A DNA stretch of 64,000 nt from Moniliella sp. 'wahieum' (GCA_003971905.1 RSEE01000023.1:682001-746000), one strand, 5' to 3'. Positions 1,391 through 64,000 are shown, counted from the stretch's first letter. The notes: generated by a model not told the origin, from the sequence alone. Numbers and translations: made by a program.

Positions 1391-1430
1391 ATCACTCGTC
1401 ACTAGTCACTAGTCACTAGTCACTAATCAC
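1391..1430. repeat. Tandem heptamer array (TCACTAG)n, about 6 units
   Basis: TCA starts at 1392, 1399, 1406, 1413, 1420 and 1427. Further copies near 1466-1487. Confidence 0.9.
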
Positions 1431-4400
1431 GTGTGCATGTGACTTCCACCTCAAGTCGCTAGCTTCACTAGTCCTATCACTAGTCACTTCGATATTATGC
1501 CACTACTGACATCGACTGAGATCTGAGATCCGGGGTAAGTCCATTCACCTTTCCAAGCGCACACTTGGCCCCAACAGACCAGAGAACCAACCGCCTCCAC
1601 TTGTGGCATCCCATTGCTTTCCTTCCTCTCCCACCCCTCCCACCCCCCTATATGCTCTCTCGCACGCCACCCCCCGATTTGGCTGTCCTCCGCCTTTGTC
1701 TCTTCCATACAGGGAGCAGGGCACTGTTGCCATCTACATCTCCCCCAGCCGCCAAAAACGTGGGCCTCCAGATCGCTCTCTCACAGTCAATGGCAGAAAT
1801 AGCTAGGGATGATTAGGGGTCGAAACACGAGAAGATACTCCGTCCAGACATCCATCAGCTTCCCTCTCTATAATCGAGCATTAAGGCCACGTTGCCTTGG
1901 TCGTCGCTCACATCCTCGGGCGAAGGTGGCCCTTTTCCCGGAGCTAGACCTGTCCATGATGAGGATGCGGAATATGTTGACACGGTCAACGTTGCGTCTT
2001 CCTCCCTCGGACCCAGCCGCGTATGCCTACTTCTGTTGGTCATCGTCTTTCTGTTTTCCTCTACTTCATCGTCGTTTGCTAGTGGAAATTGGACGTTGAT
2101 GGCGTTGATATCGGGACCAACTAGCCTTAGCAGGATGAAAGTGTCGTACAGTGCCGATCCGGTCTCGGACTGTGTACGTGGAGTTTCTCGCTCGTATTAT
2201 GTTGGCTGGTGTTGGCTGAATAGAAAACGAGGCAACGTGCGCGTCCTACTTCTATCTTCTCATCCCACACCTGCGTCTCGTATTGTCCAACTCTCCCAAC
2301 AGTACAGTCATCTTTTGCCCACCGGGTCGGTTCCTAATCTCTGCTGTGGTTTTGCCCCTTCTCCACAAAAAGTCACTCTGACGGAGGATCACACACACCC
2401 ATACCCACCGGCTGTGCGTATGATCCTGTTCTAGATCTTCCTTGACTCCCTTGTGTGTGCCCTCTCTACGTGTTGTTTACAACCGTGTGATTAGGATTAC
2501 TTATATCTTCTTCCTCTGGTACATAAAACACCATAGTCTCGGCCTGTACGCCCTTTTTGGCGAGGAGAAGACGGAAGGAGATAGGTAATAGCATGGCAGC
2601 CGATGGCTCTCACACGTCCTCCACGTTGCTCTCGGACGTATGCCGACTTGGCAGCATGGAGGTGGGGGAGATGTAGGAAATAAGGGGGCACCAAGGAGAT
2701 ACACACCGCCCCATTTCATATTCTCCTTCGAAAAACAGACTCTCCCTACAGTAGGGCCACATGCTGCATCTTACTCGATGGATTGGAGAGGGTATGGGTA
2801 CGCCACCCAACATTCCGCGATATCTTGGTCTTCCGGGATATAAGGTCTCGTTCGCATGCAGAATATGGTGCAGCAGGAGTTCGTTACACGGGGCGTGCAT
2901 GGTGTCGCTGTGCGAGGCGGGGACGGATGGTGAGCGAGAGGGAAGGATGTCAGATGAAGCTGATGAAGTGCGCGGTAGGTGAACAAGAGGAAGAGGATGA
3001 AATTTGAAATGTGTATGGAGTGGTCGCTGGCGCAGAGGCCACCCAAAAGGCCACGCACGGACAGCCCGAGCCTGCCCGAGCACAACGGCACACCTCCATC
3101 AGTAACCGGTAACTAAAGCTAGTAACCGGTAACGGTAACCCCAGATGTCCAACGCGGCTCCTAGTCACTTAGTCACGGTGCTTAGGCCCCGGCCCAGTCG
3201 CTTCCACCATCTTGCTCGGCGGGATCGATGATCCATTCGCCTTCGAAGTCTTAGGCTTCAGGCGCTGAGGCTCTCGGTCCCCGTCGGCAGAGCTAAAAAA
3301 CGCTGGGTCGCACATGCATCACACACCAGTATCAATAGATCGGAGAATATTGCTCGTTTGGCCGCCGATTGGTATACGATCGATGATTTCGGTTGCTACT
3401 CCACCCAGCCGTCCTCTGCAGAGGAGGATGGGTCCGATGGGCTACCTTCATGTTGCCACAGGAGATAGCAGACGCTGGCAGAGGTGACCCAACGCCCTAC
3501 AAAAGGGCGCATTGGCACATAATCCAACTGCGTTCCCGAGAGAGATGAGACTGCCACACCGAGAGAGAGAAGATTATTGTGATACCGGTGACGCGCTGTC
3601 TTTTTGCCATCGGGGTTGCCGCAACACAACACACCCATCAGAAAGGTCAATGTGTTTGGGGGAAGAGGCGCATTGTGAAGGTGCATCCTTTGTGGTAGTG
3701 GCACAACACATTATGTTGATACCCTTGGGATCGTTTGCATGCGCGATGGGTGTGCTAATAGGTCGCGCGCCCCTTCATGATGACGCGCGAGATGTGTTAA
3801 TTGTGTTCACTACCACACAATTAATGAAAGACGCATATTCGAACCTGCGCCTGTGTGTCGCTTCCCCCTCAACTTCAGAAGCGTAACGGTGTTGCGAATG
3901 CAATGCATTGCTTCTCCCCCCCGCCCAAAGCGTCAGAGACAGCTTGAGCAGGGGCCAACAACCGGTGAAAGCATGGCTTGCCGATCAGGCGTATAGAGAG
4001 TGGGGACTCTACTGACTAGCTGACTGCATAACGAGTATACACTTGAGTGGGCAGTTGCGTGTGCTTCTTACTGCCCGAGCGTCGTTGATTGTAAGTGCCA
4101 CGTTGCGCAGCCCTCCTGGTGGGGGTTCCAAATGCTGGGTGTTGCACATACCCCAGTAGGATTCTTCTTCGACTTGCCCCTGGCATCTGCTGCAGGTGCC
4201 CAATCGCCGCGCAGCTGCTTCCGGAGCCTTTCTTCTTCCACTGGCCGTCGATCAAGACATGATCAACCAAAGGGCAATCAGTTGCCCCTCTCCGTGCTGA
4301 GACGATTTAAAAGCGGACGTGTCCAGCTTCTGTCCCAACTGTCACCAGTCCCCTCCATTCCCCACTCTCCCCCTGAGTCCACAGACCCCCCACACTACAG

Positions 4401-4432
4401 GCTGTGCGCGTCCCTCTCCATTCTCTCTCATC

Positions 4433-5889: not shown

Positions 5890-6401
5890 GAGATCTAGCT
5901 GGCACCTACGCACTGGCCCCCTCGATTTGTTGTGAATACCCTACTGGCCCCGCTTCTTCCTTCTCCTTCTATTCCTTTTTGGACCCGGGAGGCCGTCGTT
6001 CCTTGTTCTTCTATATCTTGATATATCTGCATCTGCTCCCAGCTCCGCCCCGCTTCGCCGCCTTGACCGTCGTAGCATATACTGAACCCTTTATATTCTC
6101 TGCATATACTATGAAAGAAGTTTCGCAATCACCCACCCGGTAACCTATCTGGTTTAGTTTCCTCCCCCAACGTCATGCCAACGTGCATCCATTGGCAACA
6201 GAGGCAAGGCCACCGGGTAAGATGGCATCAACCGTCAACGAGAGGGTGTGACAATACAACGGTGTCTATAGATAGTCCAAGAATGGGGGGGGGGGGAGGT
6301 GATGGGAGAATCAAGCTTCAAGGCGTATTAGCGTTCGGCTTGAGCTGACGTCAAGGGGGCAGAGGGGGACATGTCCTGATGCTGCAAGTGGCGTTACCGG
6401 G

Positions 6402-8234: not shown

Positions 8235-8930
8235 CGGTGGGGGCGGTCACCAAGTCGGTCAGGCACGCGTCGGGGCATTCCAACCCCCGCCAGACACCGA
8301 CCCGCGAGCGACAGACGGGGTGGTGGCGGCGGGGCGGGGCACCGCTTACCACATATCACGTGCCACCCCACAGCAAGCCACTGCAAGGTTTGTGATACAA
8401 GTGACGTGTGACGTGGAGGTGATAGCTTGACGTAGACAGGCTATGTGCTGCGCTGGCACTGGGCCAGAGATCGGGCTGCGCGCCTGCGCTTTCCTTTCGT
8501 GCCGGTGTTCGCTTCGCCTGTTGTCTTCTCTCCGCGGCCGACACCGTTTCCACTCGATACTTCGTCCACCCTCCGTGCTCGCGATCAGCTACCTAGCTCA
8601 TTCAGTCACTAGGGGCCATCACATTGCGGCTAGTTGGTCACGGTGCAACACACGCAGCTGGTACTCGAGCAGGCTGTGACGACTCAGTCCCGGAAGGTCT
8701 ATGTGGATGCATGATGTTGGTGCGGCGTTTTTTGGGGCCACGAAGAATGGCCTCACACGCCACATCGCTGATCCTTCTGTGATTTGGTCGCCAATGCTGT
8801 GGTCCCGATGACAGTGTGAACTATAAGATGGGAAAGCAGTCGAAGAAGAGGATGGTATACACGCATTAAGAGTCGTGGGCCCAGAAGGGAAGCGCATCAC
8901 ACAGAACGTGAAACAGAGAGAGGAAGGAGG

Positions 8931-10774: not shown

Positions 10775-11454
10775 GTTGGCAGATGGGGGGGGGGGGGCGA
10801 TGTTGTTGGTGGTGCTGCCGGAAGGGTTAGCAACAGCAGGAAAGAAAATGAGAACGTCCTCCTGTTGGGAGCGGGCAGAAGCGTGCTGTTGGGCTTTATA
10901 GTGCCGATGCACGGATGCGGGTGCTGGGCGGGTCGACTTGGATCCAACTCCACCTCTGGCCGGCGGGAGGGGCAGGCGGGGAGTGTGATGGGCTGCGTAA
11001 CTGCGCGTGTCGTGCCCCTTACTCTGGAGCGGCTGGCCCCGTGCCAAGAGAGGCTGGGGTGGCGCATTGGCCCGCAGGACGCTATCCGTGGCAGGCAGCG
11101 CTGGGCCAGCGGACGGCGGCTGGCAATGCGCCGAGCGAGAGTGGCTGAATCGACGCGGTAGCTTTGCGGGACGTCCTGGCCACAGTGTTGCACTGCCCCC
11201 CAGGGCGAAGGCGAAGCCCACGTATGTACCGTCCGAGGCTGCGGCGCTGAGGCACTAGGGGGGTGACGCATATGACCCGTGAGGTGTGGCGTAGGACACT
11301 ACTGCGGTCCCAGCCGCCCTGCCTACGCCAGCCTTCACATCCACACTTGGGTTCCTGACGGCACAGTGGAGCACACTGGCTTGGACCCGCGCACACAGGC
11401 TGGGTGCGATTAGTTGTCCTTCGACGGTGTGCCTGGCGTGTCGGAATTCAATAT

Positions 11455-11528
11455 TCAGCGCTCAGCGCGCTTTGGCGCTTCAAGCTTCAAGCTTCAGCGC
11501 CTTCAAAGCTTCAGCGCTCTGCTTCAGC
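11455..11528. repeat. Heptamer-periodic array (TCAGCGC / TCAAGCT units)
   Basis: tcagcgctcag...ttcaagcttcaagcttcag... Confidence 0.8.
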
Positions 11529-13266
11529 CCCAAGTCTCACGCCCTCAGGCCTTCCGCGCCTCAGCGCCTCCTCCTTCTGGCCCTGTTGATATCTCGATAT
11601 CGATAGTCACCAATCGCTAATCAATCATTCCACGACAAAGGCGCACGAGCGCCGCTACCCCTAGCCGGCTCTCGGCGCTCTCGGCCGCGACGCTCAGCCA
11701 CTGCAACTCAATAACTCCGGACGCTAGTGCACTCAGTACCCACTACACTCTTCAGTTCGTGCTCCCATGTTTTAGACAACTGGTGTACACGGCGCGCCTC
11801 GAGGCCACTGTCGGCTCTCCACCCTCCATTCCCCCCACCCCCACCCCCACCCTCCACCGCTCTCGGATCTCGACGGGCTCAGCCTGAGCGCTGACACTCA
11901 CCCAAACCAAGTCAGGCACACACCGTCAAAATCTTCGAGCTTCAATCTTCAATTTTTCAATGCCTCGGACCCTCACGTCCTCGGTACTGAGTTACTAGTT
12001 GCTAGTTACTGTGGGGTCCCCCCTTCGCGTCTCTGATGCATGACACATCTGCATCATCCTGAGGCCTGATGCACCTGAGGCCTGGGCCTGAGGCCTGATG
12101 CTTGTTGAGGTCTGAGACACCCTGATCCCCTGACTCAGGTCGCCTGAAGCTCGCCTACTGAAGGCGTGAGGCCTGGGGCCCTGAGGACCGGATGGCATGA
12201 CTGGCGAGGACGGGAACAATCTGAGACCCCTTCTGGTCATTGAATATGGACTCCAGCGGAGAGATGGGAGAGGAGTCGCCACGTTGGGAGAGTGCTCTCG
12301 ATTGCTGTGGCTGGCTGTGGCAGGGGAGTCGATGAGGCTAAAGCTTAAAGGCGCTGTAAGGGTCGGAAATACCGAGTAAAAGGCAGGTTAGGCCGCTTAG
12401 GCCGCTTAGGCCGCGGGTTGCCAGTTAGGCCTCAGCGTTTCTAGTCGCCAGTACTTTTCAAAAAGCAAGCATGTCGTACAAATCTAGTGTTCCCCCGTGC
12501 ATATCTCCGCGAGCAAATGGTGTTTGGGGCTGATGGAGATGGAAGACACTTGTATATACTCGGAAAAACGGGTTGGTGCTGTTGGGAACCGTCGGGCCCA
12601 CGGACTGACTGGCAGGACCAGTACGGGGTTGGGGTACATCAGGAACCGCGGTTCTTTCGTTTGCGTCAAGCCGTGCCCGTCTTTCCCACATCAGTGGGCA
12701 AAAAGGAGCAGAAAAAGATGGCCACTCTGTGATGACCTAGTCGAAAATGGAAGCTAGAAAATGTGGAGCAGCAGTAGATCTCTTTTTTCGTACTTCGCCT
12801 CCTTTTTGGAAGAATTAAGTGGCAGGTATCACTTCCCCCGTTCATAGCAACTGCCCGCCACAGCGACGAGATGTGGCTACTCCCCCGTTCTAAGACGATG
12901 AGAGTATCGCAATGAGCATTATTTTTTAGTACCCGTGGGCTGCAACAGAAAGCAGCTCCTTCTTTTCGACCCAAACATGGCTCATTTGCTGGGTGGGCCC
13001 AAGAAGAGGCCCGGCAAGCAATACCATAAGATTGAGACTGTTCTTCATGCGTTAGTTCAACAGCTGGTGAAGACGATGTGCACCCTGCTCCACCCTCTTC
13101 CCTCTACTCCCCCTCGGCAAATTTTCAACCGGTTACCCGAGTTACCCCTCAACTACCTAGTGCACCGTAGAATCTGCCCATATCAAACACCGCCGTCACA
13201 CCGCCCTCTTCTATAACGAAAACAGCGTAAGGTGCTTTTTAGACCTGCCTTGCTTCGACAGCGGCA

Positions 13267-14760: not shown

Positions 14761-15059
14761 GTGAGAGATGGTGGACAGAGAAAGTGAAGCCTTCAGTGCG
14801 TCGTTGGCGAGTTGGCGAGAAATGCGGGAGGTCAAACGCGACCAACGCACATTGCAATGTTGATTAGCTCATCACGTGGGGCAAATGATTGGTACCCCTC
14901 TTTCCTGGTTGTTTACAACGGCCCATTGGTCCACGCGAATGAAGCGCTCATCGTACGGCAAATACCACTGGAAGCGGCTCATCTCTAGTCCAGTTCGGGA
15001 CCTCTCAGATCTCATGACCAAAAGGAAAGATATGATGTTTAACCAATCCAAAAAATAAT

Positions 15060-15141
15060 CTCTCCGACCGGGAATCGAACCCGGGTCTCGTCCGAACGTC
15101 CTGTTGACAGGGACGTGTCATAGCCACTAAACTATCGGAGA
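15060..15141 (-). tRNA. tRNA-Asp (anticodon GTC) with a 10-nt canonical intron at 15095-15104
   Basis: Minus strand folds as acceptor TCTCCGA/TCGGAGA, anticodon stem CGTCC/GGACG with loop CTGTCA^C, and T arm CCGGG-TTCGATT-CCCGG. Pol III T-run just downstream (A-run at 15050-15055). Confidence 0.93.
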
Positions 15142-15367
15142 ATTGTTGTTGCACTGCGTATTTCGATTTACATTCAAATGGTCACAACTGTATCGTTGCC
15201 TGCTTCTTATCTGCATCCTAGACTACTTCATCTTGATCCCCAGAGGAAAGCTCCGCTGTTCTATCGGACTACTGACCCCCCTGAGCCGTGCCCAAGGAAT
15301 GAAGAAGATGAATACTAGTATGATAGGCCAAACGTTCTTTTGACACCACCACGCACAACCATGTAAA

Positions 15368-16751: not shown

Positions 16752-17167
16752 GCACTGGCCGGACGGCTGCTGACTGGGCGGGGGTGGTTGTGGTTGTGGT
16801 CCAAACGTTTTGTCCTGGGGGCGCTTGAAGCTTCACGCGTCACGAGAGGGGGCTGAGTGGGAACAGGCGGCTTATGTCATCGTAATTGGCAGTGCTAGTG
16901 ATCCAAGTGATCCATCCACGCTTTAAAGCGCTGGCCAGACTGTCGGTCTGACGCCGGTAGAACAGCCGTCTAGTCGATCTACCGGCAACCTGTTTGGGCT
17001 TCCATGGGGCTGGATGTCCAACGTCTATTGGAAACCAAAGCTATTCCACAATTCGAGGACCAGAAAGGCGGAGCAGGTTGTGCGCAAACCAAGAATTCGG
17101 CAGAGTGCACCCGGCCTTGGACGTTGGCCTGGGGGCGGGCGCAACTCCAAGGATAGGATGGATGGAC

Positions 17168-22061: not shown

Positions 22062-24924
22062 ATGTCCAACGAACACAAGCACACGTCCGACTTGGGCTAT
22101 CAACCGCCGACAGCTGGGTGTGCCAACCTCCCCATTTCTCTTTGCATCACACGCTGACCTCGGGACCGCCCCAGCGTATTTCCACGATGGCTACTCGCTC
22201 AAGCAGTTCCAGGTCCTTTTGAACGTCGCCTTGGATCAGACGCGTTCTTTTGCCGGAGGTGTTCGTGACAACACCATGGCCTGCGTCTCTCATTACGGTC
22301 TCCTGCACCCCGAAAAGGTGCGCAACATTTTGATCATGGACTGTATGCCTTCGCACCCCCCAGGCCAGAGGGACCTACGGAGAGGGTAGAGGCGCTGCAA
22401 ATTATTCTGTTGGGCCGCAAGTCCACCTCGCAAGGTAACGAACCTGTCATGGGTGCGATGAGGAACAAGGACCCAAACCTGTGTTGTCTTTCGTCTCTAG
22501 CGCGCTATTTTTTCCACCGGTTGCAAATAGCAAGGGAACGCCGCCCGCAAGCATGGGGCGATGGAGTTTGCCCGCCCTTAACCGAACCCGACTCTTGGAT
22601 CGACTACCCGGTTTTTCCAGGCAACGACTGAGGGCCAGCCGGTCCAGCACCGATCTGCGGGAGGATTATGACGAGGGTGGCCCCAAGGATCGCCCCGAGG
22701 AGCCCGCAGAGGTTCCCGAAGAGGTTCCCGCAGAGGTTCCCGCAGAGGTTCCCGAAGACGACCCCGAAGACGACCCCGAAGACGACTCGAAGACGACCCC
22801 GAAAAGGTCCCCGAAGAGGTCCCGAAGACGACCCCGAAGAGGCCCCCAGAAGTTCCCGAGGAGGACCCGGGCAAGTCCAGCAAGTCCAGCAAGTCCAAAA
22901 GGCCAATCGGTCGTTCGCCGATGTCTTCTTTGGGTCATTACAACGCGGTGCTGCGGTGTTTGAGGGAAGCGGGATCGAGAGTTCCAAAAAGACCCTCATC
23001 TTCCGTTGGAGCGTGCTCGTATCGCTGAGTCGCTGGGTGTACCAGGTGATGCGGTCAATAGGGCTGCGCGTTGGGTACACCAACCAGATTACAGTACTAC
23101 AGTCCCGTTTGCATGGGCCTGGTACGCGCGCTGAGTGGATGGGCGCCCCAAGGTGGTTCCTATTTCCTCCCCCGAGGTCAGCTCGACCCCTGACAATCTT
23201 TTGCGCCAAATTTTCCCGACTTGGACCAGGAGGAGGAGAAAACTCGATAAAGCGCTTCAGGAGTGCGCGCCCCTCCCCGGTGGCGCAAGGGGAAAGAAGC
23301 GTACATATGAAGGGATTGAGGTCAGCAACAGGCGTGAGCAGCTTATGGTGGCGAAACACTTCGCCAGTTGCTGAGGATGTTTCGCCGAATCATCCTACAA
23401 GATGCACCTTTTTGGTCTGACACCGTATGCAACCGCCGTATTTTGAAGTTGGACGTGTTCCGGTCACCAGAGTACAATGAGTGGTGCGATCAGCTCAAGA
23501 CTTATGTCGCTGAACAGCTGCCGCTTGAGTTTTCCCTCGAACGGGCAGTGCCTGAGCTCACTGCTTTCATTCAGCAGTGTGTTGGGAAGGTCAATGCCAA
23601 GATGGAGTCTGTGGAGGATGCGGTTCACTTGTTTGCGGAAGCTCAAGAATCGTCCGATGCGATAACGACCCAGATGGCCAATGCTGTGGCCAGTTCACTG
23701 CCCCGTTTGGAAGAGTTGATCAAGGGCAACGGGGTCACCTGGACGCGTGCGACTTGAGCGTACAGGGTATGCGGAGTGAATTGGAGAGCCTCAAACCCAA
23801 AATGGAGGGCATCGAGACCAATGTGGAGGGCATCGAGACCAAACTGGAGGGCATGGCGAACGAAATGAAGGGCATGGCGACCATGCTTGCCGCCATCGCG
23901 GGTCGCATAGGCGTTCCACAGGATGCGATTGGCCCCCCACCCCGTCGTGTGTCTCCACCCGCCGCAGGCCTGGCTCCCATCCCCGTTCCCCCGTGCCTCC
24001 CCAAGAAGCTTCACGCTCGTCCGCGGGTCCAACGGCCTCCGCTGTGCCTCCTTCCGATGACCATGTGCTTACTTTGGAAAGACGTGTTGGCACTGTTCCT
24101 AACCCTGGTGCATTTCCGCCTCCGGTGCTTGTTACCCCCACCCTGTTCGGGAAATAGGGCCTTCTGCGTCTGCTGTGCCTACTGCGCTGCTGTGCCTACT
24201 GCGTATGCTGCTTGCCTGCTGTGCCTGCTGTGCCTACTGGCGTCTGCTGCGTCTGCTGCATCTGCTGCGCCACGATCGGAAGTCGCCTGGGCCCAATAGC
24301 TGTCGCCGCTCCGACCCCCCCGCCTCTATTCCAAGCAGCATGATTACGGTTGCGTGTGAAACGCTACTTCAGACCATCCCACCCCCTCCTGCACCTCCTG
24401 CTCCCTTTCCCAGTGAACTGACTGCTCCCTTTCCCAGTGAACTGACGCTGCGTCCGAACGTCGCGTCCGTAACTGCTGCCTGGGAGGAGTGGGACAGGGG
24501 GTGGGGGGGAGTGCTTTGTCTGCGGGATCAGCTTAAGCCGCCGCCGCGATTCAACGGGCCCGATGGACGGCGACGACCTGGTCTCAAAGCGGTCGGTGGT
24601 TCGCAAGAGAACATGCTCAAACGCCGTCGCAAGGTTGGCCGGCGCATGGAACAGCTCATCGCCACGTACAAGGTCAAGCTCACCACGTCCGAAATTGTCA
24701 AGCGGGTCCACACTGCCTTTGAAATGCTGGGCAAGAAGCGAGGCGGGTTCACACAGATCTGCGACAAATTAACACTAATCCACGACGCTGACTTGGTCTT
24801 GCCAGAGAAGGAATGGACTATGGCCAAGGTTGAGCAAGTCTGGAGCGGACTACGTCGACAAAAAGGACCTGAAACGACGGTGCAGGCACTGCAGTCCCGT
24901 CACGATCAAACAAGTGAAGCTTGA
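22062..24924 (+). mobile_element. Crypton (CryptonF)/Ndc10-type tyrosine-recombinase-derived gene with a C-terminal GCR1_C domain; probably domesticated or inactive
   Basis: Collinear Crypton/NDC10_II-like motifs: DGYS, SHYGLLHPEKVR, GRKSTSQG..GAMRNKDPNLCCLSSLARYFFHR, WIDYPVFPG, KKTLIFR, GVPGDAVNRAARW, QYYSP..VRALSGW, YFLPR..IFP and FRRIILQDAP. GCR1_C-like SVTAAWEEWDRGWGG near 24465-24510. Confidence 0.8.
22694..22897 (+). repeat. Intragenic minisatellite: 12-bp units (GCAGAGGTTCCC / GAAGACGACCCC) followed by 9-bp CAAGTCCAG units
   Basis: Visible tandem units encoding EEVP/AEVP/EDDP and QVQ. Confidence 0.85.
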
Positions 24925-26922
24925 AGGAATCAATATTGGTGTTGTACAATGCGACATGGGCCTTGGCGGCAGGTTGAACGCGGATATAGCCGGATAACCT
25001 CAGGCCTGCTCCGCCCGACGTTCAGGGTCATTGCGAGCCCGGATAGGAGGCCTTGAATGGTATGGTATAGGGGGCAAATGGCCATGCGCGCTGCACCATG
25101 CATCACCCGTCGCGCGCAACACGACGGCGCCCAAGGTTTGCGCACAACGGCGCCAACGCGCCTCTTGTGCCAAAACAAAAAGGGGTGCATTGCATGCGGA
25201 CGCAAAAGGACACAGCACAGATGAGCAGCAAAAGGGGCACATACCGCCTCACAATGCAACAGAACCCGCCAATTTGAGATGGTGTTACACGTTAGGGCCA
25301 ACCCCTACTAATCCGCGAACAGTAACCTCCATATCGCACAAGGCGCTCGGAAGCTGCGCATCAACTACTATAGTTAGTATGTAGCGTCACGCCAGCCCAC
25401 GGCCGCTAGTAAGCTGCTCAGAATGATGGAGAACGTTGAGGTGAACGTTGAGTACGTTGAACGTCGAGCCGATTAAGCGTGGCTCCGAGCTGCGGTTCAA
25501 CGCTGACTCATCGATCATCGCGCTGAAGTCGCTTAACGTGCGCAGCCACGTCCGCGTCAATGCGCATCCGTTCAGCGTTCATCTATCGTGCAATGAGACG
25601 ATGACATCTTGAGAAGATAACATGGAACACTGAAAAATATACTTGAAAAGCCCTCTCGCTTATCCATCATTGGCACTACACCCAAAAAGAGTCATCTACA
25701 TGCCAATTGAAGAATGCGGTGCGGTCTGTGGCCCGGGGTGTAGGGCACATAAACAGGGCTCGCAAGTTTGGAAAGGATGGAGATGTTTGTACGTATAAAC
25801 AACCGCTGAGAGCTGTATACATTAGTCTGTGGCAACAGAGGGAGAGCTTTCGTTGTTGCTGTGACATGTGACGCAAAAGCGCGTACAAGCAAATTAACGG
25901 AGACATTATGGTGGAACACTCAAGTTCTCTCGAATGCCAGATGAATAAACTCAAAGCCTTGAGGCTCAAGCTTAAATTTGAACTGAGCCTCGGTGAGGGG
26001 GACCTGAACAGCTCAACGAGAGAGGGAGCGGAAGGACATATACACTCCTGCTTTTGTCCACCAGTTAGTAGAATAGAGAGACACATTTGCGGAGGAGGCG
26101 ATCTGGGGAGCATGCAGAGGTCAGATCGACTAAGGAGATATATGGTGACTGGACCACATTACGGCAAGAGAGCTGGCATTTTATGGCGAAAGGGCTGGTA
26201 TGCGACGGCCAGCACATCAACTACCCTACAACAACACATGGGGTGGCCTCAAGCGTTGCCGATTGAGTCGCGCCGATTTCGAGCGGGAAACAGGGGACAT
26301 TATCGATGACACGATGTACACTACTGCAGTGCCATGCGATGGGCCGGCCGGTAATTGTTAATTGCCAACCCATCCCAACGTCCATGGCTGCGGCCCATTA
26401 ACACAGTGCCGGGTTCTCCTTTCCACTTCTTTTCACAACTCCACACTATATACTACCCTATTACTCCTTTCGCATCGTCCATCTTCTGTTCGTCCACGCT
26501 AGCCTATCGGCATCTGAGTACTGAAAGTCCACACAACGATATTGTGCGCTGGCACTGAGCCAAACTGGTTCGAGCATTCTTGCTCCGCCTACGCCACCTC
26601 CCAAAACAAAAGGGTTTAAATCTGACCCTGTCGCCTGACGTCCTTTATTGGGTCGCCGGAGGAACAGCTAGGTGCTCTCATGTAAGCCAACCGTCGCAAC
26701 ACCCCTGGCCGCCGGCTATTTCTACCCCTCCTCTCTGACCCCACCACCTCAAGCCATGCCCCACTTGATCGACCTGCGCCACATCCTACCCTGACCTTTG
26801 CGCCTGGGCTGTACACACGGCGCGTGTCACTCCCTGATCCGCAATAAAGGAATACCACCCTCTGGCCTCCGCCCCTCGACATCCTCATCCGCTTTTCGTC
26901 TGGTCCTCTCATCTGTCGCTCC

Positions 26923-29290: not shown

Positions 29291-30801
29291 GGCCGCCGAT
29301 AAGGGTGCCAACGGTTCTCTCCACCCCGACTCGCTCTGCTCCCTTCTTCACATCTTTCTTTTCTCCCACCCCTCTTTCCTTGGCGCCTGTGTTCCTTGCT
29401 GGATGAGATACGTGACCCACAAGCGCGCTAAAGTGATCCACACTCTCCCGTTTCTCTCCCCTCTTGATCATCCATCGTGTTCTCAGCCGCAAAGAGAGCG
29501 TCTCTTGTCCCTTCTCCCTCCACCTACCCCTTTGCCTGCTGTGTGTGGGCTTTTCTGTGTGTTTTGTGGATGTCTCCCCTGTACGCTCTCTTCCTTGCCC
29601 CCCTTTCCCGATGCTCAGGCCCCCCTTGCCCATGCGCCTCGAATCTGTGCCGCAAGTGCGCTGTGACATATGATACGGCGTGTCCGTGATGCATCAACTC
29701 GCCGTCGGTTGTGGACGATAAGGTGAAGGGTGAGCCGGTGAGATGTGAGAAGAGGGAGATCTGAGATGGGGCTGGTGATTGATTCGATAACGCCTGTTGG
29801 GGAAGAGGGCCAGCATTGAGTGTTGCAGGTAGGATACAACCCAACCATTGGGGTAAACATTTCGGCGCTGCCGATCAGACATCATGCATGCCGTCATGCA
29901 TCGTGCGAGGGCAGCCAGGGTCGGCGCTCGGGCCTCGGGCTTCGGGGCACCAGGCGAGGCAAGCGGGACTCAAATTTCAAACGGCGAGTGAGCGCTCAGC
30001 AGCGTTACCGTTATGCGTTTCTCGTGGCTAGTAGTTCCTGGCCGGGCTGATCGAACACACCGATCCAAACTCGGGCGTGCCGCGTGCGGCCTCCCGCCTC
30101 CTGCGCTGGGCCACGCAGGACGCCGGTGCTTTGCCTGCGTCTACACGCCGCGCTGTCTCGTGGCCTGCGCACCCGTGATCGATGATCGGGAGCGCTGAGT
30201 GTCAGCGGCTGAGTGCACCCGCCCGCCGGCCCTTGGCTGCCTCGGGCCTCGGGCGTCGGATGCGCCAGACGCGCCTCCGCTGCGGTTCCCTGTCTTCCCA
30301 ACCCCGCCTCCACACTGTCGCCATGCCTGCGCGGCCACCACCAGCACCCAGGACAAACAGCAGCAGCCCAGACGTGTGACTAGGTCACTGTCACCTGTCA
30401 CCCATGTCACCCGCCGTGCATCATCCATCATGCGAGGTGGCGGCACGGCGCCCCTGTGGCGGCTGTCTGAGGTGGGAGACGCCGGGCGTGACGTGACGCG
30501 TGAGGCGGGAGGCGTATTGCAAATCGGGTGCTGGCTGCTCATGCATCATGCATCATGCCTGCGCCCCCTCGCATCCCAGCCATCTGACCTGCCCAAAGTT
30601 TAGCAGGCGCGCTGGCCCAGCACTCGGCAGGCCGATCCAGCCTGCCGCCTTCTTAAGCCCAGCGTCGATGGGGCCATCCTGCTTTGCTCGCCCCCACCCG
30701 CCCCGCCCCCGCTCCTTCCACGCTCACGCTCAGCCCAGTCCGTCTCCTGACGGTCCCCCGCCGCCCAGCCCTTGCCCTGCCCCTTCCCACGCCATCTCCC
30801 C

Positions 30802-31926: not shown

Positions 31927-33252
31927 ATCCGCGACGGTGCCAAAACAAAAAACGTCACTGGATACCCTCTCAAGCTGGAAGTTTGACCAGCAGGCTATGC
32001 AGCGACACTACTATGGCATGGCGTTCTGCCTTGCAGCTAAGCTCGTCATTAAATTCCCTCTTGGGCTTTCCCTGACCCCGGTTCATATTCTTTTGCCTTG
32101 ACCATTCCACACCACCCCTCTCCTGTTCTCTATGTTCAACTCTGTACTCTCCCATGTGTTCAATGGTTCCTTCTCCACCCAATCAAGTCATCTAATCCTG
32201 CATGGTCTGCCGCAGACCCGTCGCCTTCGTTGTCGGGTCACCGGTCAGAGGTGTTTGCATAGCAGAAAAAGGTCCAGGGTCAGCTTCAAGCTTCAAGCTT
32301 CACCGTCGCAACGACAAACTACATTATTTCGTGGGCAACTATAGATAGGCCCGCCCCCAAAACAAATTCTGACGCCTAGCACGGCGCCACACTCTCGGAA
32401 AGCGGCAGGGGGCCAGTCGGCCCCAGCCGGGCACGTATGTTGTGGCTGAGGCGCTGAGGCGCTGAGCGCATTGGGTGTCGAACACTGGCGCTGTGCAATC
32501 TGAGACATCTTTCCCATTGCGTCCCAACGTCCCAACCCAACCCAGCCCAGCCGGGCGCTCAGCAGCGGCGGAACTGCATCCAGCATCCAAGCGGAATTGC
32601 CAGCCCCGCGCCCTGGCGGGATGCCTATACCGCGCCTCCTGCGTAACGCGTAAACCACCGCCGTGCTCCACCTCGCGTCGAGGGCCCGTAGCTGGATCAA
32701 ACGGGAGGTGACACTTGGTTGGTAGTGGTAGTGCACGAACGGCAATTCCGGCTGCTGGAGTGGGCGCCTAGTCAAAGTTCGTCGGTAGGCCGCTAGGGGA
32801 GACCAAGCACATTACGTTGTGTATGCGAAAGATGCCACCTCTACCCACCAAAAAGAATACCTCCTGTGTTAGGGGAACCACGTGCCCGATGCCCTCGATG
32901 CTTCCTTTTCTACACGTGGCGACCATAAGGCCTACCTAAGGAGGGGCAGGGCAGTCTGTAGTGGCAGGGGCGCCGTAGCAGGCGCTGGTGAGGGTCGGCC
33001 TTCGGGCGTTTGGCGGTGGTGCGCGGGGCGTTGCTTGCGCCTGCAGGGGCAGCGTGGTGCAGCTGGGACAGGCCGGGCGTGAACATTTCATTGTGCTGCA
33101 AGCGTGGCAGGCAGCGCAGCGCCACATGCCCTCGGCCATCGGGCCAGGTGCGCGGGCCTACCTGGGGCCATGCGTCAGGCTGAGCGCCGGCGCAGGCGCA
33201 GCCACGCCTCCATCCATCCCTGCCTCCCCTCCACCACCACCCTCCACCGGCC

Positions 33253-34977: not shown

Positions 34978-35364
34978 TCGTGGCGACATGCCGTGTCAAC
35001 GGACTATTGGGCTGAGGGGAGGCGGGGGGGGGGGGCGCGTCCCGCCTCTTCCCCCCCTCCCCCCCTTGCCCTCACTTTCTTTTCCCCCTCATTCCTTCCC
35101 CTCTCCTCTCCTCTTCAGCCTGTGTCCTCTCCTTTCCCTTGTCCACCCTTGTAATGTCCTTGTGGGTTGGCTGCTGCTGTGGCGTTACCGCTGGCCCTAC
35201 CTTCGATCGAGAGGGGGGGCAGCTGCTTCTTAGTCTCCCACCTACCACAGTCCTTTGGTCGGGTAGGTGGTTTCGCCTCGCCTGCCTGCTGCTGCGCTAC
35301 TGCACATGGTAGGGACTCTGGTGGCCTCTGCATAATGCAACGCTCGTCTCTACAACCTTCTGCG

Positions 35365-35404
35365 TAACCTAACCTAACCTAACCTAACCTAACTAACCTA
35401 ACCT
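35365..35404. repeat. (TAACC)n microsatellite, about 8 units
   Basis: taacctaacctaacctaacctaacctaactaacctaacct, in the convergent DPL1-PIK1 intergenic region. Confidence 0.9.
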
Positions 35405-36120: not shown

Positions 36121-39100
36121 TTAGAGGATGCCCTGGGAGTAGTATGGAACTGGTCGTAGAGCCGGGTAATGCAGAGCCGGCCGAGTTGAGGATGAGGCGA
36201 TCGACAATTCGTCGCTCTGCTCGGCGCTGAGCGCGAGCTGGAAGCGCTGCCGCAGCTGGTTGGCCGCCTCCTCGCCGAGCGCAAAGCAAGGCAGCCGCGA
36301 ATCGCGCGCCATCAGCTCACAATCATGATGATCCGCTCTGCCTCCTTGCGCACGTCCCGGAACGCCTGCCGCATCAACTGTCGGAACTGATCAAACTTGC
36401 TGCTCTCCATGCCGCCCAGCAGATCAATGTACTCCTGCGGCATCTTGAATGGCGCCGCCTCGAACCCCACACCAGGCGAGATGCCGAGCATAAAGCCAAA
36501 GTCAATGTCTGTCACATACAATCCCTGTCAGTTTCCTCTTCCTCCTTCCTCCATTCCCCCCCCCCCCCTCCCACCACCACTCGGACGGAGAGCAAGGACG
36601 TACGGATCAAGTGGCCCTCGTGGTCGACGAGGATGTTGCCATTGTGGCGGTCCTTGATCTGCAGGAGATAGCAGATGATCGAGTAGGCCGCCAGCGACCG
36701 CATAAACGCATCCTGGGCGCGTTTGAACTTGCCCGACGAAGGCGGGCCATAGACCTGGGTGTAGTGGTCCCAGAGCGAGTAGGTGCGGATCGGCTCGGAG
36801 CCAGCGCCTTCCGAGGCGTGCGAGTAGGCCTCCTTTTTGATCGAGTGCACCGACACGGCATCGGTGATGGTCTCCATCACCCCCGACGACTCGGAAGTGA
36901 CGAGGATGTTAAAGTAGCGCACCCACACCCCGGATCCCTCGGCGTGCCAGATCGATCAAACTCGCCAATGAGCTGGGTGGCCAGCTGCTCCTGCCGCAGG
37001 TCCGCGCCGGTTTTGATAATGACGCTGATCACGTCCCAGTGCGCATGCGCGCCATACGGCGACGCGGCGCGCAACCGCTCCCGCTTGGCGGCCCACGACT
37101 CGCGGAAGATGGCGCAGAGGGATCATCTTTGTTCACCACCGCACGGATCGTGTCCGCATCCTCTTCGCCCCCCGCTGCCTCGTCGGTACCCGCGAACGCG
37201 TTCCGCTTGGCCTTGGCTTTGGCCTTGGCCTTGTGCGAGCACACGGGCCCACGCAACCGCGCCATTCGCTCCTCCTCCAACGAGATCATCTCCGCCATGA
37301 TGCGTGCCCGAATCGCTTCTGCGTCCGCAGGGATGGTGCGTGCCGCACTCGAGCTGCTCACCACCGCCCCACCGCCCGCAGCACTCACTCCGCCATTCAT
37401 TGCGCTGGGCGGAACCGATGTGCGGCGGCGGTACTGTTTGTGCCCACGAGGGCAAGAGCTTGCTCACCACCCCTGCCGTTCCCTGCCCCGGTTCGGAGGA
37501 CGCAGGCGCGGCGCAGGCGCAGACGCAGACGCACCAACGCCTACTAGCGACGCAGCCCCGCTCGCGGCGGCACCCAAGGGCGCCGTGATGACCCAGCCCT
37601 TGCGCGCGCGGTTCTGGTTGAGCTGGGCAAGCATGATGGCCGCGGTGCGCATGCGCTCCGAGTAATCTGCCAGGCTAAACTCGCGTTCCTCCTTGCCGTC
37701 GCTCGAGTGAACATGAGACCCGCGCGAGCCGCGCCAGACCATCGTGTCGTGGACCGGTTGCGCGACGAGCCCGAGGCAAAGGGGCCCGGTTCAAGGCCAT
37801 CCGGCTCGGATTCCGACGAATCGGGATCTTCTTGCCCGCCAAACCGTTCGAGGTGCGAGCCATACGCCTGTTCCGTCATATCCACCCCTTCGGCCTCGGG
37901 GGATCGTCGTCAACAGAAGCTCTGCACCACCTGCATCGTCCACGCTCACCTCGGACACCATGCTTTCGTCGGCCCAGTCACCAGCCTGTGCCTCGGCTTC
38001 GCTGGGCCGTCGGGAGAATGGGCCAAGGCCAGGGAAGAGGAAAGGGAAGGATGGTCCGTGTGCGCCTTTTGCCCCAGAGGTGGCCGGGCTCCATGCGAAC
38101 CAGGCGCGCTCTGACTCAAGGACCGCTTGAGCCCATCCGAAGGCGGCGGACTCAGTGCCGGGCCTGACGTGTGGGCGTCACGGTGGGTGCGGCACGGGTC
38201 CAAGAGGGGTGAGGAGACATCGAGACGGGTGTGCGAAGCTGCTGAGCGGGTTCGACAGCGTCCGGGCCGCGCCATTGCGTCGGGGGACAAGGTGGCTGCC
38301 GAGCCGCCGGGGGCAGGGGGGAGCCTGATTGCGCGCGCGGCACGGGAGTGGGCTTCTTTGGTCAACAGCCGCCGCATTGTGTCCCGGTTGGCGCGGCGGT
38401 CCGGGTCAAAGTCGAGGTCATTGCGCAGGACCTCAATCTGCAGCACATACGGTGCGCGGTCCGCCGAGTTGAGCACCACCGCCTCGGACGGATTGATTCG
38501 GACTATGCGGTGGTGGCGCGCTTGCTTGCCCGGCACAGACGTCCCATCCCCATGTGCGTCGTGGTGCTTGTGCCGGCCCATCACGTCCGACGTGGCGGCA
38601 CACCAAGCGGGAGACAGCTTCAAGGGGGAGCATGTGGTTCAGTTCTGTCAGCTCTGCCCGCAACGCCGATACACGTGCCGGTTTCGGAAGCAGTAACAGC
38701 CGTCCCGAAATCGATCGAGCCGGGCCAGAAAGTCGGTTTGGGTGCGGGCATAGTGCGAGCGGAGGAGCGCAACCCGCTCCTCGTACGGCACGTCGCTACC
38801 AAGCGCAGGCGCAGGCGCGTGCGCTTCGCTCGGTATCGAAGCGGCACTGAGCCTTTGCCCACGTAGGCGGAACAGGTTTCCTGACGAACTGCTCGGTGCT
38901 TGTCGCGCCAGATTGGGCACACTGGCCCCCCTTGCCAAGTTGGGCGTGGACTGGCTCGGTGCACCTCGAGCGAGATGGCCAAGATTGAAGCTGGTGGGAG
39001 GAGGGCCCGGGTGGGGCGAAGAATAAATCATCGATCGCGCTGCCTGGTGTGAACCGTACGCTGCACCAGGGATCGATCCGGGGTCTTTGGTGGCTCCATC

Positions 39101-40578: not shown

Positions 40579-41583
40579 CCTGGGCGGCGCAGAGGAGGTG
40601 GTGGGCGGAGCGAGCAGGTGCGCGTGGCTGGCCAGCGCACGCCGTGTGAGCAGGGCGATGCGTGACGGGCTGCCACGCCACACACTGGCCCTGCGCCGCC
40701 GCGGCCAACCCTAGTGCGGGCGGCGCGGAATGTGCGGGGTGCGGCGCACGGGGGGGAGTAACTAGTAACCACGGCCATATGGCAGCAACCACGAGCGGGT
40801 TTGTATACTAGCTCTTTTTCCTCCCCACGAGGTGCCCTGTAATGGATCACTCCAACCGGCATTGTTCCGTTGGTCCGACGCCCTACTGGTTAAAGAGGCG
40901 CCAGTGGGGTGTACCAAATTCTACGAGAACTGCCAAGGGGGAGGGGGGTTCGTCTTCGGTTCATGACCTGGTGCCACAGCAGTATGTACGCACCCGAGAA
41001 GAACGGAGAAGAAGTCATATGATCATCATCGCCTACCAGTTCGCCATGTTGGACCTAAGCAATACTTCCATCCAACGCAATGACGTCGGCGATGTAGCAA
41101 CCCCGGGTATGCACTCCATGGTTCAGATACAGCTAATTCTGTTTTCTGCGCCTCTGTGTCCCCTCTCTCGCACCCCTGTCGTCAGACCCCATATACTACC
41201 ACAAAAAGTACGCCCTGGCATATATTTTGAGGATCCCTTTTCTCCCCTCCGCCTCCCCCACATCTCACAAGAACGTGCCCATGGCACCTAGGCGGCCTGG
41301 GGAAGGCATCTGCGGGTAATAGCAGGCTCTCGCAACAAGGTGTTCGGGTGTGGAGCTGTATTTAGGTGGCTCAGAAAGGATGCGTGCTAGTGAAACGTTC
41401 AGTGTTGGTTAGCTTTGACTGGCGTGGCCGCGGGCGGCGGAATGCGCGTCCACAATAGGCCAGGTGGGTAGCGAGCAGTTCCGCCCCCCGCCTCCTCGCC
41501 TCCCCGCCCACCTAGCGGGGTGCGTCCATTCCATCGCCGCCACGGGCCGCGTCGCGTTTCTCTTGCCAGCCAGCTTGCCCACC

Positions 41584-58329: not shown

Positions 58330-58976
58330 GGGCGGACGACCATCGGTGGTGAGGGTGGACGGGGGGGCAGGGGTGGTAAGGGCGGGGAGGGCGGGATGGA
58401 GGATGGTGGGAGCGAACCAAGCGCCTGGTTCGATCGGATCAATGGGAGGGGTGATGTGGATCGCGGCTGTGGTACTGAAGGTTCAGTCGAACGTTGAAGA
58501 GTGATGGGCCGATGCGGATGGATGATGGATAGGGCGTGACACGTGACATGTGACATGTGATCGGTGGGTGATTGGGGGTCGATGGTCGATGACCGATCTG
58601 AGCATCTGAGATCTCAGGCGAAGCGAGGCGCTCCCCCCAAGTCAAAGTGGGGCGGCGACTCGAGCTTCGCCACAGCGAACGCCGATGACGTCCACACTGG
58701 CCGGAGGCCTTCAAGGTCTGGCTGGACCAGGGGCTTGGGGAGGCAGGCACTCGCTAGTCCTTTGGAGCCATTCCATCTTCCATCTTCCGTCTTCCATCTG
58801 CAAGCTTCAAGCTTCAATCCTCATTAACCTCATTCATGTCGCAGCATGTCGTATCAACGTATCAACGTTGAACGTTCAACGTTCAACCCCTTCTCCTCAT
58901 CCTGTCTTCCACACCTATCCAATTGGGGGTGCAGCCACAAGGAACAATGGTAGCGTGTCTGCTCATCGGCTCATCC

Positions 58977-59519
58977 TCATCGGGACTCCCATACTTGCAT
59001 GTCAAATCCCTCCACCAGCGCCGGGTCGTCCTGCTCCCACACACAAAGGGACGAATCGCCGGTACGGTAAGCAAACAGACATCGCAGGTTGGCGTATGGG
59101 GGCACATCGGACCGGCAGAGGACTTACCTTGTAGGTGGGGCCGAATCCGGCAAAGCCATCGCGCAAGACCAGGATCTGCTGTGGGGCCAGGGGCACCTTG
59201 GCCTGGCGCGCAAAGGCTGCCCGGGCCTCCGAGTAGATGCGCGCCGCCTTGGGCCCTCGTGCTTGGGACAGGTGGCAGTGGAAGACGACCTTTGACTTGT
59301 CCTTCAGCTCCTGGACCAAGTCGGACACGAGCGTGTCCGCCTGGGCGTCGCCGCGGGCGAGGTGGACGGTAGGCCTGTTGAGAGCACCGAGGATGTGGCC
59401 GCCAACAAAGTCGTCGTCGCGTGCGTCGACAATGGCGAGCTGGTCGCGCGTACGGGCATCTTTGAGCTGGGCAGCGAGGTCGGAGGCGTTGATGTACGTG
59501 TAGGCAGCGTGAAGGACAT
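58977..59519 (-). CDS. Cdc25-like rhodanese phosphatase / arsenate reductase (Ych1/Ibp1/Acr2 family)
   Basis: IVDARDDDFVGGHILGA, active site VFHCHLSQARGP (HCX5R) and VLRDGF. Intron near 59031-59127; last exon DDPALVEGFD..WESR*. Confidence 0.88.
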
Positions 59520-60509
59520 GCCAACGGGGCGAGCGGAAGCAGGCAGACAAGGCTGGGGTGAGGGTGCCAACGCCCGAGCGCATTGCGCGGTGGGCGTTCC
59601 GAAGCCAGGACAGAAGCGGTGGATTGCGGGTGGCGGCAAGGTTGGTAGGTGCTCTGCCAGCGCCAGGCGCTGTTGTTGCAGGGACGCAGATGGACGGGAT
59701 GCAATGGTGATGCGCCAGGTCTGTCACTGTGACATGCATAGTGACTAGCTTGAAGCTCGACGGAGAAGCGCAGCCGCATGTCAGACCACAGTGACTAGTG
59801 ACATGCACATGCGACGAGCGCTGCCCTGTGTTGCAAGGGTTTTGTTACCACTAGTACCTGCGGTTACCGGTTACCTGTCACTTGTGTTACTCTTCGCGGT
59901 ACTCGGTACACTTCGTCATACTCATGCTGCCGCGCGCAACGCGTAACGCGTTACGTGTAACATGTACCGACTTTTGGCATGTCCTCCTGTCCTCAACACG
60001 CCTCAGGGCCTCCGAACTGAGGCTCAGTTCTGAGGGGGCTCATCGATTTCATCCATCGACCTAACCCGATCTTCAGGTGTCGCCGCCACCGCAACCAAAC
60101 CGGCATGGCAGGGCACCTGGTCAGGCGGCAATGCCGCTGACGGGCTGCGCACACGTTGAACCAACACCCCATTCCGCCCATTCCGCTGGGCATTCCTCGG
60201 CTGCCGCCCAGGCAGGGCTGATGCATGATGCATGATGCTCGGGAGGGAGAGGGAGCGGGACGTACCAGGGCCCTGGCCCGCCCGCAGCCTCCCGCACTCG
60301 CCCGGCCTTGGCTGTGCTCGGCCGGGGCAGGCATGAGCATGGTGTGGGATGCCGCGGACGTGGTGTGGATGAGATCGATGACGCAGGGCAGCGATCGCAT
60401 CCATAGTCAATCTAGTCAATGGCGCAGCCAACTCACGCACACCCTCCCTCCCTCCCATCCCAGCCTCACCCCCACCGCCACCGCCACCTCCACCACCATC
60501 TCGCGCGCC

Positions 60510-63263: not shown

Positions 63264-64000
63264 CGACGGCTCAGTGCACTCACTGTGTCACTTGTGCCCG
63301 CTTTGCCTGTTGGTTCAACCATCATGGCCTGATCCACTTTCTGTTGGCACGCCCCCCCCTCTCGCGCGCTCTCTCTCTCTTCTTACCGCCCGGACAATGT
63401 CGATGATGAGGGGAAACAAAAAGCCCTCGCCATATTACGACCGCTTTGGACATTAGTTGTTGATTAAAATTCCCCTCCTGTTGCCTATGCATGCATCTGT
63501 TGGACCGTTTGCGCCGGCCGGGGACGGAAGGGAGGGGGATGATCGATGAGGATGAGGGTACGTATATGTTTACGGTATGCAGAGAAGTGGCGTGCGGCAG
63601 CGCCTACATAGCGGCGGGATTTTACTGCTGCAGGGCCAAGCTCTGGATTGGTGTCCTTTGCTGGTATGGGTAAAACGTTAAGCTTCAAGGGGATGAAGTG
63701 GATGAGGGGAACGAGGGGAACGAGGAGAACGAGGCGGACGAGCTGCATGTTATGCAGAGGCCAATTCTAAGCGGCACCCTAACCCCTCGAAGCTCTTGCC
63801 GCTATGCTACGCCCCCACTCAGTACTCAACCCGATCGAGTTGGCACGATCCATGGGCAGGAAAGACACCAGTCCTAGCACAAGCCAGACAGCATGTCATA
63901 GTTTGACAAGGGCCACGGGTACCGATAAAATGCACCTCAGTCGGACAGACGCGTAATTTCTGCCCCCCACCCCCGCCTAACCTCCCTCCAATCCGGGAGA

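Follow-up and report, generated by a model that had tools for sequence, protein, structure and literature searches.

The stretch of DNA considered here, 64 kb from Moniliella sp. 'wahieum' (GCA_003971905.1, RSEE01000023.1:682001-746000) and referred to below as the window, carried many short elements in which two T-N-A triplets were separated by a self-complementary 4-mer. The window was nuclear DNA of an intron-rich fungus, with a G+C content of ~59%. Pfam matches anchored an EamA transporter, an amino-acid permease, a cyclin, a PQ-loop protein, an LSM protein, a Sub2/UAP56-type DEAD-box helicase, an ELO protein, a PLP-decarboxylase, a PI4-kinase, a C2H2 protein, RLP24, a DUF3425 protein, a rhodanese and a GILT protein, and each of these anchor genes was broken over several short open reading frames (ORFs). 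Homology was queried with the domain-bearing pieces; a whole-ORF query, mostly non-coding, gave no match. The best named relative of the GILT protein came from Sympodiomycopsis (39% identity), and a conserved piece of the helicase, a protein too conserved to decide kinship, matched Tilletiopsis (83%), Ceraceosorus (82%) and Tilletia (81%), all of these being Ustilaginomycotina.

All counts covered this one window of one genome. The main null model consisted of 200 dinucleotide-preserving shuffles of the window, and a local null model (200 runs) confined the shuffling to 200- or 500-bp blocks, keeping local composition. Coding DNA was approximated by the longest open frame spanning a position, a proxy that is noisy at this G+C content, and by the Pfam-matched bases. 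A self-trained codon-usage model and a GC3-GC2 ORF score were dropped as classifiers, being too insensitive: the former called only 13% of the window coding, and the latter covered 22%.

Enrichment and structure of the elements

An earlier note on this DNA had listed about 17 loci with this grammar, and the words that it described were present in all 17 of its coordinate ranges. The pattern held and extended to 45 loci, roughly one element per 1.4 kb of the window. The decamer formed by a T-N-A triplet, a palindromic 4-mer and a second T-N-A triplet occurred 62 times, compared with 6.21 ± 2.46 (maximum 15) in the dinucleotide shuffles. The same frame with a non-palindromic spacer was slightly depleted (71 vs 100.4 ± 9.4), and palindromes made up 47% of the spacers against ~6% expected; the lack of enrichment that the note had named as refuting was not seen. 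Under block shuffles, decamers with the same N in both triplets numbered 48 against 2.2 (maximum 6-7 of 200), those with complementary N 8 against 2.0, and those with any other N 6 against 2.6. Chance alone would supply ~6-7 decamers, and some of the 14 with non-identical N, such as those at 28894, 29115 and 29687 inside long ORFs, probably arose in this way. As an account of the whole set, chance or a sequencing or assembly artefact had next to no probability, as the shuffles never exceeded 15 decamers of all kinds, or locally 7 with the same N, and 45 separate loci of differing sequence followed a single rule.

Identical T-N-A triplets peaked at a distance of 7 bp, as anticipated in the note (80 vs 33.3, z 8.6), with a second, lower rise at lag 14 (49 vs 33.4, z 2.9) and flat counts at lags 3-6, 8 and 10; the 48 palindromic-spacer pairs carried the entire lag-7 excess. 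When triplets b1-N-b3 were scanned over all 16 outer pairs with palindromic spacers of 2, 4, 6 or 8 nt, T.A with a 4-nt spacer alone stood out (62 vs 6.4), the runners-up, T.G (26 vs 13.8) and C.A (24 vs 15.7), both being under two-fold. Even palindromes overall were not enriched in the window (6-mers 981 vs 1029, 8-mers 225 vs 267, 10-mers 60 vs 70), and the sole raised class of 6-mer palindromes was A-xyy'x'-T (218 vs 160). This hexamer excess consisted of those with T at -2 plus A at +2 (62); hexamers with only one of the two (30 and 35) were at background. Exact runs with a 6-bp palindrome in the repeated unit were likewise raised at lag 7 (40 vs 5.7), and in the window they stayed at background at lag 8 (7 vs 5.7), lag 10 (8 vs 8.0) and lag 11 (11 vs 9.7). 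An odd palindrome centred on T-N-A was rejected as the primary unit, with 592 5-mers against 668 and a modest rise in 7-mers (217 vs 173).

Both triplets had the same N in 48 of the 62 decamers, 41 of them with C or G at that position; of the others, 8 had complementary N and 6 some other combination. The spacers drew on 14 of the 16 self-complementary 4-mers, led by AGCT (12 of 62), TGCA (7) and CTAG (6). For the flanks, we took the 31 same-N decamers without a neighbour within 20 bp and oriented each by its longer extension. On that side, the lag-7 identity ran at least 2 nt past the decamer in 25 of the 31 (exactly 2 nt in 15, 3 nt in 6), while the opposite side showed no extension in 24 and one of at least 2 nt in only 2; by our own arithmetic, ~12% of elements would extend by 2 nt on one or both sides by chance. 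No flank position beyond the extension was conserved among these 31 isolated elements, which span 1.4-1.7 units. The one-sided 2-nt extension indicated that the unit is a polar 12-mer, D-P-D, in which D is T-N-A-x-y and P is y'x', so that a 5-bp direct repeat encloses a 2-nt inverted filler. The earlier note had taken the unit for an odd 7-mer palindrome; the 7-bp period stood, and the palindromic 7-mer gave way to the 12-mer.

The junction between the two copies was almost deterministic. Any 5-mer followed by the reverse complement of its last two nucleotides and by a second copy of itself occurred 74 times against 7.2, and with T and A at positions 1 and 3 the counts were 48 and 0.37. Between two T-N-A-x-y copies, a 2-nt junction equal to the reverse complement of the end of the left copy was found 43+5 times against ~0.5, and other junctions were rare (1 nt, 2 vs 0.75; 3 nt, 1 vs 0.02; templated by the right copy, 1 vs 0.05; mixed, 0-1). 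When the length of D was varied, T.A at its fifth- and third-last positions was enriched at 5 nt (48 vs 0.36), 6 nt (6 vs 0.16) and 7 nt (5 vs 0.0), and in this junction scan of the window T.A showed no enrichment at any other offset. Because the T.A position remained constant while the length of D varied, the inversion point appeared to be fixed 2 nt 3' of T-N-A and the restart to float: of 59 cases, 48 resumed at T itself, 6 one base upstream of it and 5 two bases upstream. The fixed offset also indicated that T-N-A is recognised in its own right and is no by-product of a hexamer palindrome. The resulting order, direct, inverted, direct, or xy, y'x', (TNA)xy, was seen in 25 of the 31 isolated elements.

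Arrays, single elements and their placement

At least two exact units were present at 11 loci, and Tandem Repeats Finder reported period-7 arrays of 2.1-5.7 copies at 1392, 11477, 30539, 32282, 58535, 58854, 59933, 60219 and other positions. The longest array (1392..1430, plus strand) held 5.6 copies of TCACTAG, that is, TCACT and a 2-nt junction, with three exact D-P units followed by a full D and with CG and AA instead of AG at the outer junctions. On the same strand, two units of TCATG-CA followed by TCATG lay at 30539..30558, ~600 bp upstream of the ELO-domain match, two units of TGATG-CA followed by TGATG lay at 60219..60238, ~365 bp upstream of the GILT domain match, and a TGA-GATC element with 2.1 copies of CTGAGAT lay at 1516..1530. 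Arrays on the minus strand consisted of AGCTTCA (3.0 copies, 32282..32302), CAAGCTT (2.4 copies, 58801..58817) and CGGTTAC (2.1 copies, giving TTA-CCGG-TTA, 59861..59875). A period-9 variant, (TTAGGCCGC)x3, occurred at 12388..12414 (plus strand), in which TTAGG-CC was followed by a restart 2 nt upstream of T.

Mixed arrays kept one anchor triplet while the spacer changed. At 11446..11520 (no strand assigned; fold z -3.0), upstream of the permease gene on the minus strand, TCA alternated with the spacers ATAT, GCGC, GCGC, AGCT, AGCT, GCGC and others, and at 12034..12101 (no strand assigned) TGA was combined with interleaved TGCA and GGCC spacers. N was switched to its complement within two arrays. 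The first switch, at 58862-58885, belonged to the array 58854..58887 (plus strand; fold z -3.7), which repeated TCAAC-GT(A) five times with one anchor flipped to TGA; the second, at 59944-59960, belonged to 59933..59961 (plus strand), which read TAA-CGCG, TTA-CGTG, TAA-CATG, with N of the middle unit flipped from A to T. A further array, TGA-CACG, TGA-CATG, TGA-CATG, TGA, lay at 58535..58560 (no strand assigned). Some details of the earlier description needed correction at this level, although its words were present throughout: the arrays given as 58537-58560 and 59938-59960 each included one non-palindromic spacer (CACG and CGTG), the middle triplet of the TTA-CTAG array at 11992-12008 was TTG, and 3103-3133 and 25442-25517, described as continuous arrays, each consisted of two separate decamers.

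In several period-7 arrays the spacer was one mismatch off a palindrome, with the identical mismatch in all units, as in (TCATGCT)x2.7 at 63237; the shared error indicated that existing units were also copied as such by slippage, apart from the birth step. Predicted folds of the short arrays had 5-bp stems with a T-N-A loop and energies of -2.6 to -3.2 kcal/mol, and exact tandem runs were generally raised in the window (lag 5, 16 vs 1.1; lag 6, 14 vs 0.4; lag 7, 10 vs 0.15; lag 9, 4 vs 0). The elements could accordingly be ordinary heptanucleotide microsatellites, in which self-complementary units are favoured through hairpin-stabilised slipped intermediates. Such repeats share with them the head-to-tail 7-bp arrays, the location in non-coding DNA and the growth by slippage; the window-wide rise in short tandem structure would fit, the arrays with a shared non-palindromic error show that slippage occurs, and two longer arrays folded better than shuffles (z -3.0 and -3.7). 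We nevertheless considered this explanation very improbable. Slippage leaves unexplained the majority of the same-N decamers, which were isolated 12-mers (31 of 48), as well as the absolute requirement for T.A and the one-sided polarity; palindrome-bearing runs were not enriched at periods such as 8 and 10, and most arrays folded no better than shuffles. Heptanucleotide microsatellites differ, moreover, from units that obey a grammar of T-N-A and a self-complementary 4-mer and that are mostly polar singletons of 1.7 units. Strong hairpin or cruciform potential was ruled out for most arrays by the fold z-scores.

Tandem repeats that broke the rule were also found. The spacers bearing elements contained short duplications such as GTCACCT x2.9 (30384-30402), GCTGAGGC x2.8 (32445-32466) and TTCCATC x4.1 (58771-58799), an indication that 5-9 bp duplications arise readily in these spacers in general. 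An interstitial pentamer array, (TAACC)x8, lay at 35365-35404; the complement of its unit, TTAGG, resembles a telomere repeat one G short, and the unit fits T-N-A-x-y, but it repeats without an inverted filler. At 24398-24446, CTGCTCCCTTTCCCAGTGAACTGA was present twice as a 24-bp tandem duplication, which is recent, given that the copies are perfect. A 12-bp-period repeat at 22679-22897 (consensus GAGGACCCCGAA, ~13 copies, then (GCAAGTCCA)x3) probably encodes a Pro/Glu/Asp-rich repeat near an NDC10-like ORF, as its period is a multiple of three. Non-coding homopolymer tracts of 12-13 G or C occurred at 6285-6296, 10785-10797, 35024-35035 and 36556-36568. The low-complexity region at 1-1230 (64% G+C) had long open frames on both strands, rich in Pro, Ala, Gly and Arg and with no Pfam match there, that are probably spurious or else encode disordered protein.

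Single elements on the plus strand were TCACT-AG-TCACT (1477..1488), TGAAA-TT-TGAAA(T) (2998..3010), TCAAG-CT-TCAAG (6311..6322), TAAAG-CT-TAAAG (12339..12350), TGAAG-CT-TGAAG (24915..24926), TCAAA-TT-TCAAA (29970..29981) and TGATC-GA-TGATC(G) (30176..30188). Those on the minus strand, written as they read on the plus strand, were TCTCA-GA-TCTCA (15003..15014), CGTGA-CG-CGTGA (30492..30503), GGTCA-CC-GGTCA (32236..32247), GATGA-TC-GATGA (63538..63549) and ACTCA-GT-ACTCA (63817..63828). The minus strand further carried the isolated decamer TGA-GCGC-TGA with a 1-nt flank extension (11885..11894), TGA-CATG-TGA and TAA-CGCG-TAA, each with a flank extension (25860..25872 and 32641..32653), TGA-CTAG-TGA ahead of the first Met in the rhodanese ORF (59790..59802), and TAA-CTAG-TAA (40757..40769), which lay 2-3 codons after a candidate ATG of the PI4-kinase ORF and may or may not be coding. 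Two abutting elements with a common TCA (TGA-AGCT-TCA-CGCG-TCA-CG) were found at 16826..16844 (plus strand), and two separate ones, TGA-ACGT-TGA at 25442 and TCATC-GA-TCATC(G) at 25508, at 25442..25520 (plus strand). At 3102..3133 (no strand assigned), GTAACCGGTAAC, containing TAA-CCGG-TAA, was present twice, 20 bp apart, so that a larger duplication carries the element.

The element at 15003..15014 lay ~45-60 bp past the 3' end of the sole tRNA gene of the window (15059-15142, minus strand). ARAGORN, in its bacterial mode, labelled this gene tRNA-SeC (anticodon tca). In the covariance alignment, 12 nt were inserted behind C-U-G-U-C within the anticodon loop, and an intron-bearing tRNA-Asp(GUC) is therefore more likely, the SeC label being an artefact.

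The elements avoided coding DNA, in agreement with the earlier note, which had placed the arrays between genes. None of the 62 decamers fell within the 4,785 Pfam-matched bases (4.6 expected if uniform), the longest open frames spanning the loci were shorter than those across the window (medians of 130 and 200 codons; Mann-Whitney p 2.8e-7), and a frame of at least 200 codons covered 9 of the 45 loci, compared with 52% of the window. Clusters lay upstream of the minus-strand permease gene (11.45-12.43 kb), upstream of the plus-strand ELO gene (29.97-30.56 kb), between the ELO and decarboxylase genes (32.24-32.65 kb), in the spacer flanked by the DUF3425 gene on its 5' side and by the rhodanese 3' end (58.54-58.89 kb), and in the divergent rhodanese/GILT spacer (59.79-60.24 kb). 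As most spacers are short and shared, a position upstream of a start was inseparable from one downstream of the neighbouring gene.

This placement would fit regulation. Selected cis-regulatory or chromatin elements, whether sites for one or more factors reading T-S-A at 7-bp spacing or promoter repeats that tune expression, would lie in such spacers beside gene starts (ELO, rhodanese/GILT, permease) and could crowd some spacers while being absent from others. Some of the hexamers also resemble known fungal sites, among them ACGCGT, the MluI cell-cycle box. Such a role was nonetheless judged unlikely. With 14 spacers in use, no word was favoured beyond AGCT; a symmetric dimer predicts complementary N, which occurred in 8 of 62 decamers; lag-7 pairs with non-palindromic spacers (71 vs 100) and odd 5-mer palindromes centred on T-N-A (592 vs 668) were not enriched; and a protein could not impose the polarity or a spacer predicted by the flank. 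The general factor reading spacing and symmetry that the earlier note had offered as one explanation was, by the same evidence, poorly supported.

Origin of the elements

We interpret the elements as mutational scars and not as binding sites: a T-N-A-specific +7 "turn-around" duplication would have left them, and slippage would then have amplified them. We give this reading a probability of about 0.5. The copied N, the copied x-y, the flank-predicted y'x', the exact length and the polarity argue for copying, not protein recognition. The same features suit the other explanation offered in the earlier note, in which template switching or slippage left a footprint: N copied in 48 of 62, x-y repeated, the filler a reverse complement and N flipped within arrays. 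The heptamer-periodic repeats of Ustilago maydis that it mentioned were not confirmed by a literature search of open-access papers and preprints, and the fungus studied here is a different species.

The elementary event would lengthen the site by exactly 7 bp, from T-N-A-x-y to T-N-A-x-y, y'-x', T-N-A-x-y. As the sequence shows, the product holds x-y in three copies, the middle one inverted, and T-N-A in two, forming a miniature direct-inverted-direct duplication. A strand under copying, or an end under repair, would arrive at the point 2 nt 3' of T-N-A (N being mostly C or G), turn back along the complementary strand for two bases, and restart at T or at times 1-2 nt upstream. The step is probably dictated by an enzyme that nicks or breaks the DNA sequence-specifically, rather than by microhomology, because T.A alone qualifies among the 16 outer pairs; this enzymatic step is the weakest part of the proposed mechanism. 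Every event would create a second identical target, allowing repeat events, and once two units exist, ordinary replication slippage could amplify them into period-7 arrays, in which an occasional strand switch would flip N to its complement. Selection would remove the insertions from exons, since an extra 7 bp shifts the reading frame and T-N-A, whatever its N, reads as a stop codon on one strand or the other, and the scars would build up only in non-coding DNA.

Several points weigh against this reading. The +7 direction of change was deduced from structure alone in one window, where no ancestral "empty" site was seen. We know of no enzyme or repair pathway documented at T-N-A with this geometry, a zero-loop turn-around is sterically awkward, and the restart has a microhomology of at most 1 nt. 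Identical T-N-A triplets were also in excess at lag 9 (61 vs 32.2, z 5.1), which is explained only in part by period-9 variants of the element, five in number, and by 9-bp repeats like the one at 12388. The loci were strongly clustered, with none at 33-40.7, 41-47 and 47.3-58.5 kb despite intergenic DNA there, and a uniform mutational process would not predict clustering without hot spots. Only 4 of the 11 multi-unit arrays ended in a full D on one strand, and we accordingly do not claim that the arrays are pure reiterations of D-P units closed by D. As for single-strand folding, z-scores against shuffles ranged from -3.7 to +1.1 in nine arrays, of which four folded no better than shuffles and two clearly better; the predicted hairpins are weak, and the turn-around would gain little from secondary structure.

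Clustering is also where an origin in transposon excision would have something to offer, as promoter-biased insertion would account for it. Here T-N-A would be a 3-bp target-site duplication (TSD) around a 4-mer left over from the element termini; alternatively, TNAxy would be a 5-bp duplication carrying two palindromic "P" nucleotides from a flank opened as a hairpin. The layout matches formally, a short duplicated target around a palindromic filler, and the identical N in 48 of 62 is what a TSD would give. We regard this origin as improbable. The filler varied over 14 different 4-mers, whereas element ends predict one per family, and it matched the adjacent flank dinucleotide in 25 of 31 elements, whereas element ends predict no flank match. 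The usual TSD of PIF/Harbinger elements is T-W-A, with a central A or T, unlike the C or G found in 41 of 48. In hairpin junctions (hAT, Transib, CACTA, V(D)J) the filler is likewise templated from the end of the flank, and these junctions are heterogeneous, with 0-4 P nucleotides on either flank and deletions. Hairpin opening thus predicts variable P lengths, both flanks and nibbling, whereas only the 2-nt one-flank form was enriched here, with one fixed length and no nibbling; T.A would also sit asymmetrically in a 5-bp duplication. A search for a source element within the 64 kb found no dispersed repeat and none bounded by terminal inverted repeats, and Rfam gave only a tRNA. In the available part of one source, Stowaway/mariner excision leaves a small duplication and a short element-end sequence, whereas the fungal filler follows the flank, and PIF/Harbinger elements generally excise precisely (PMC4561436). 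Basidiomycetes do hold Harbinger (3-bp TSD), EnSpm/Plavaka (2-3 bp) and 7-bp-TSD families, as far as the available part of a second source goes (PMC12730594). A transposase-derived nuclease is a candidate for the break in the duplication that we favour.

A turn-around duplication of this kind resembles known processes in part. Quasipalindrome template-switch mutagenesis (the Ripley/Lovett models) reportedly perfects existing imperfect inverted repeats; it too copies the complementary strand over a few bases, and it would explain the N flips in arrays, but it creates no direct repeat and has no T-N-A requirement. Small inverted triplications (DUP-TRP/INV-DUP) are explained, in the portion of the report available, by two template switches during replication, with segments of 148/160/148 bp, a 30-bp spacer, 6-bp junction homology and a link to FEN1 loss (PMC13334657). 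Set beside that portion, the order of segments (direct, inverted, direct) is the same, and the fungal segments differ in being 2-5 bp, 30-70 times smaller, without a spacer, with at most 1 nt of homology and with a strict T-N-A anchor. The TAACTGA repeats of Beggiatoaceae are intergenic heptamer direct repeats with a proposed regulatory role, according to the accessible part of their description (PMC4679880); they are similarly abundant, and on that basis the contrast is between one fixed bacterial word and, in the fungus, many words under one rule. The pattern reported here was not described in the open-access papers and preprints searched, which does not imply its absence from print at large.

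A more tentative possibility is that an endogenous, sequence-specific DNA-writing activity, for example, a domesticated transposase or nuclease together with turn-around synthesis, adds exactly 7 bp at T-S-A-x-y in a site-dictated, self-propagating manner, building and resizing promoter arrays. If so, it would be a mutational mechanism not described before, and regulatory variation would have a source built into the genome. Should the rule hold genome-wide, it would constitute a very clean mutational signature, with a single triplet, distance, insert length and polarity; signatures this clean can usually be traced to one enzyme or pathway. The process would also offer a simple genetic read-out, as a +7 (that is, +1 frame) reversion at a defined site, through which the responsible activity could be found. 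Motif-discovery pipelines applied to this clade would report palindromic hexamers such as ACTAGT, AAGCTT, ATGCAT, ACGCGT and others as regulatory candidates, although they are probably scars, and such reports should be treated with caution. If the rule applies across the genome, these scars would show how non-coding DNA is remodelled in a compact fungal genome and would represent a natural source of variation in promoter length.

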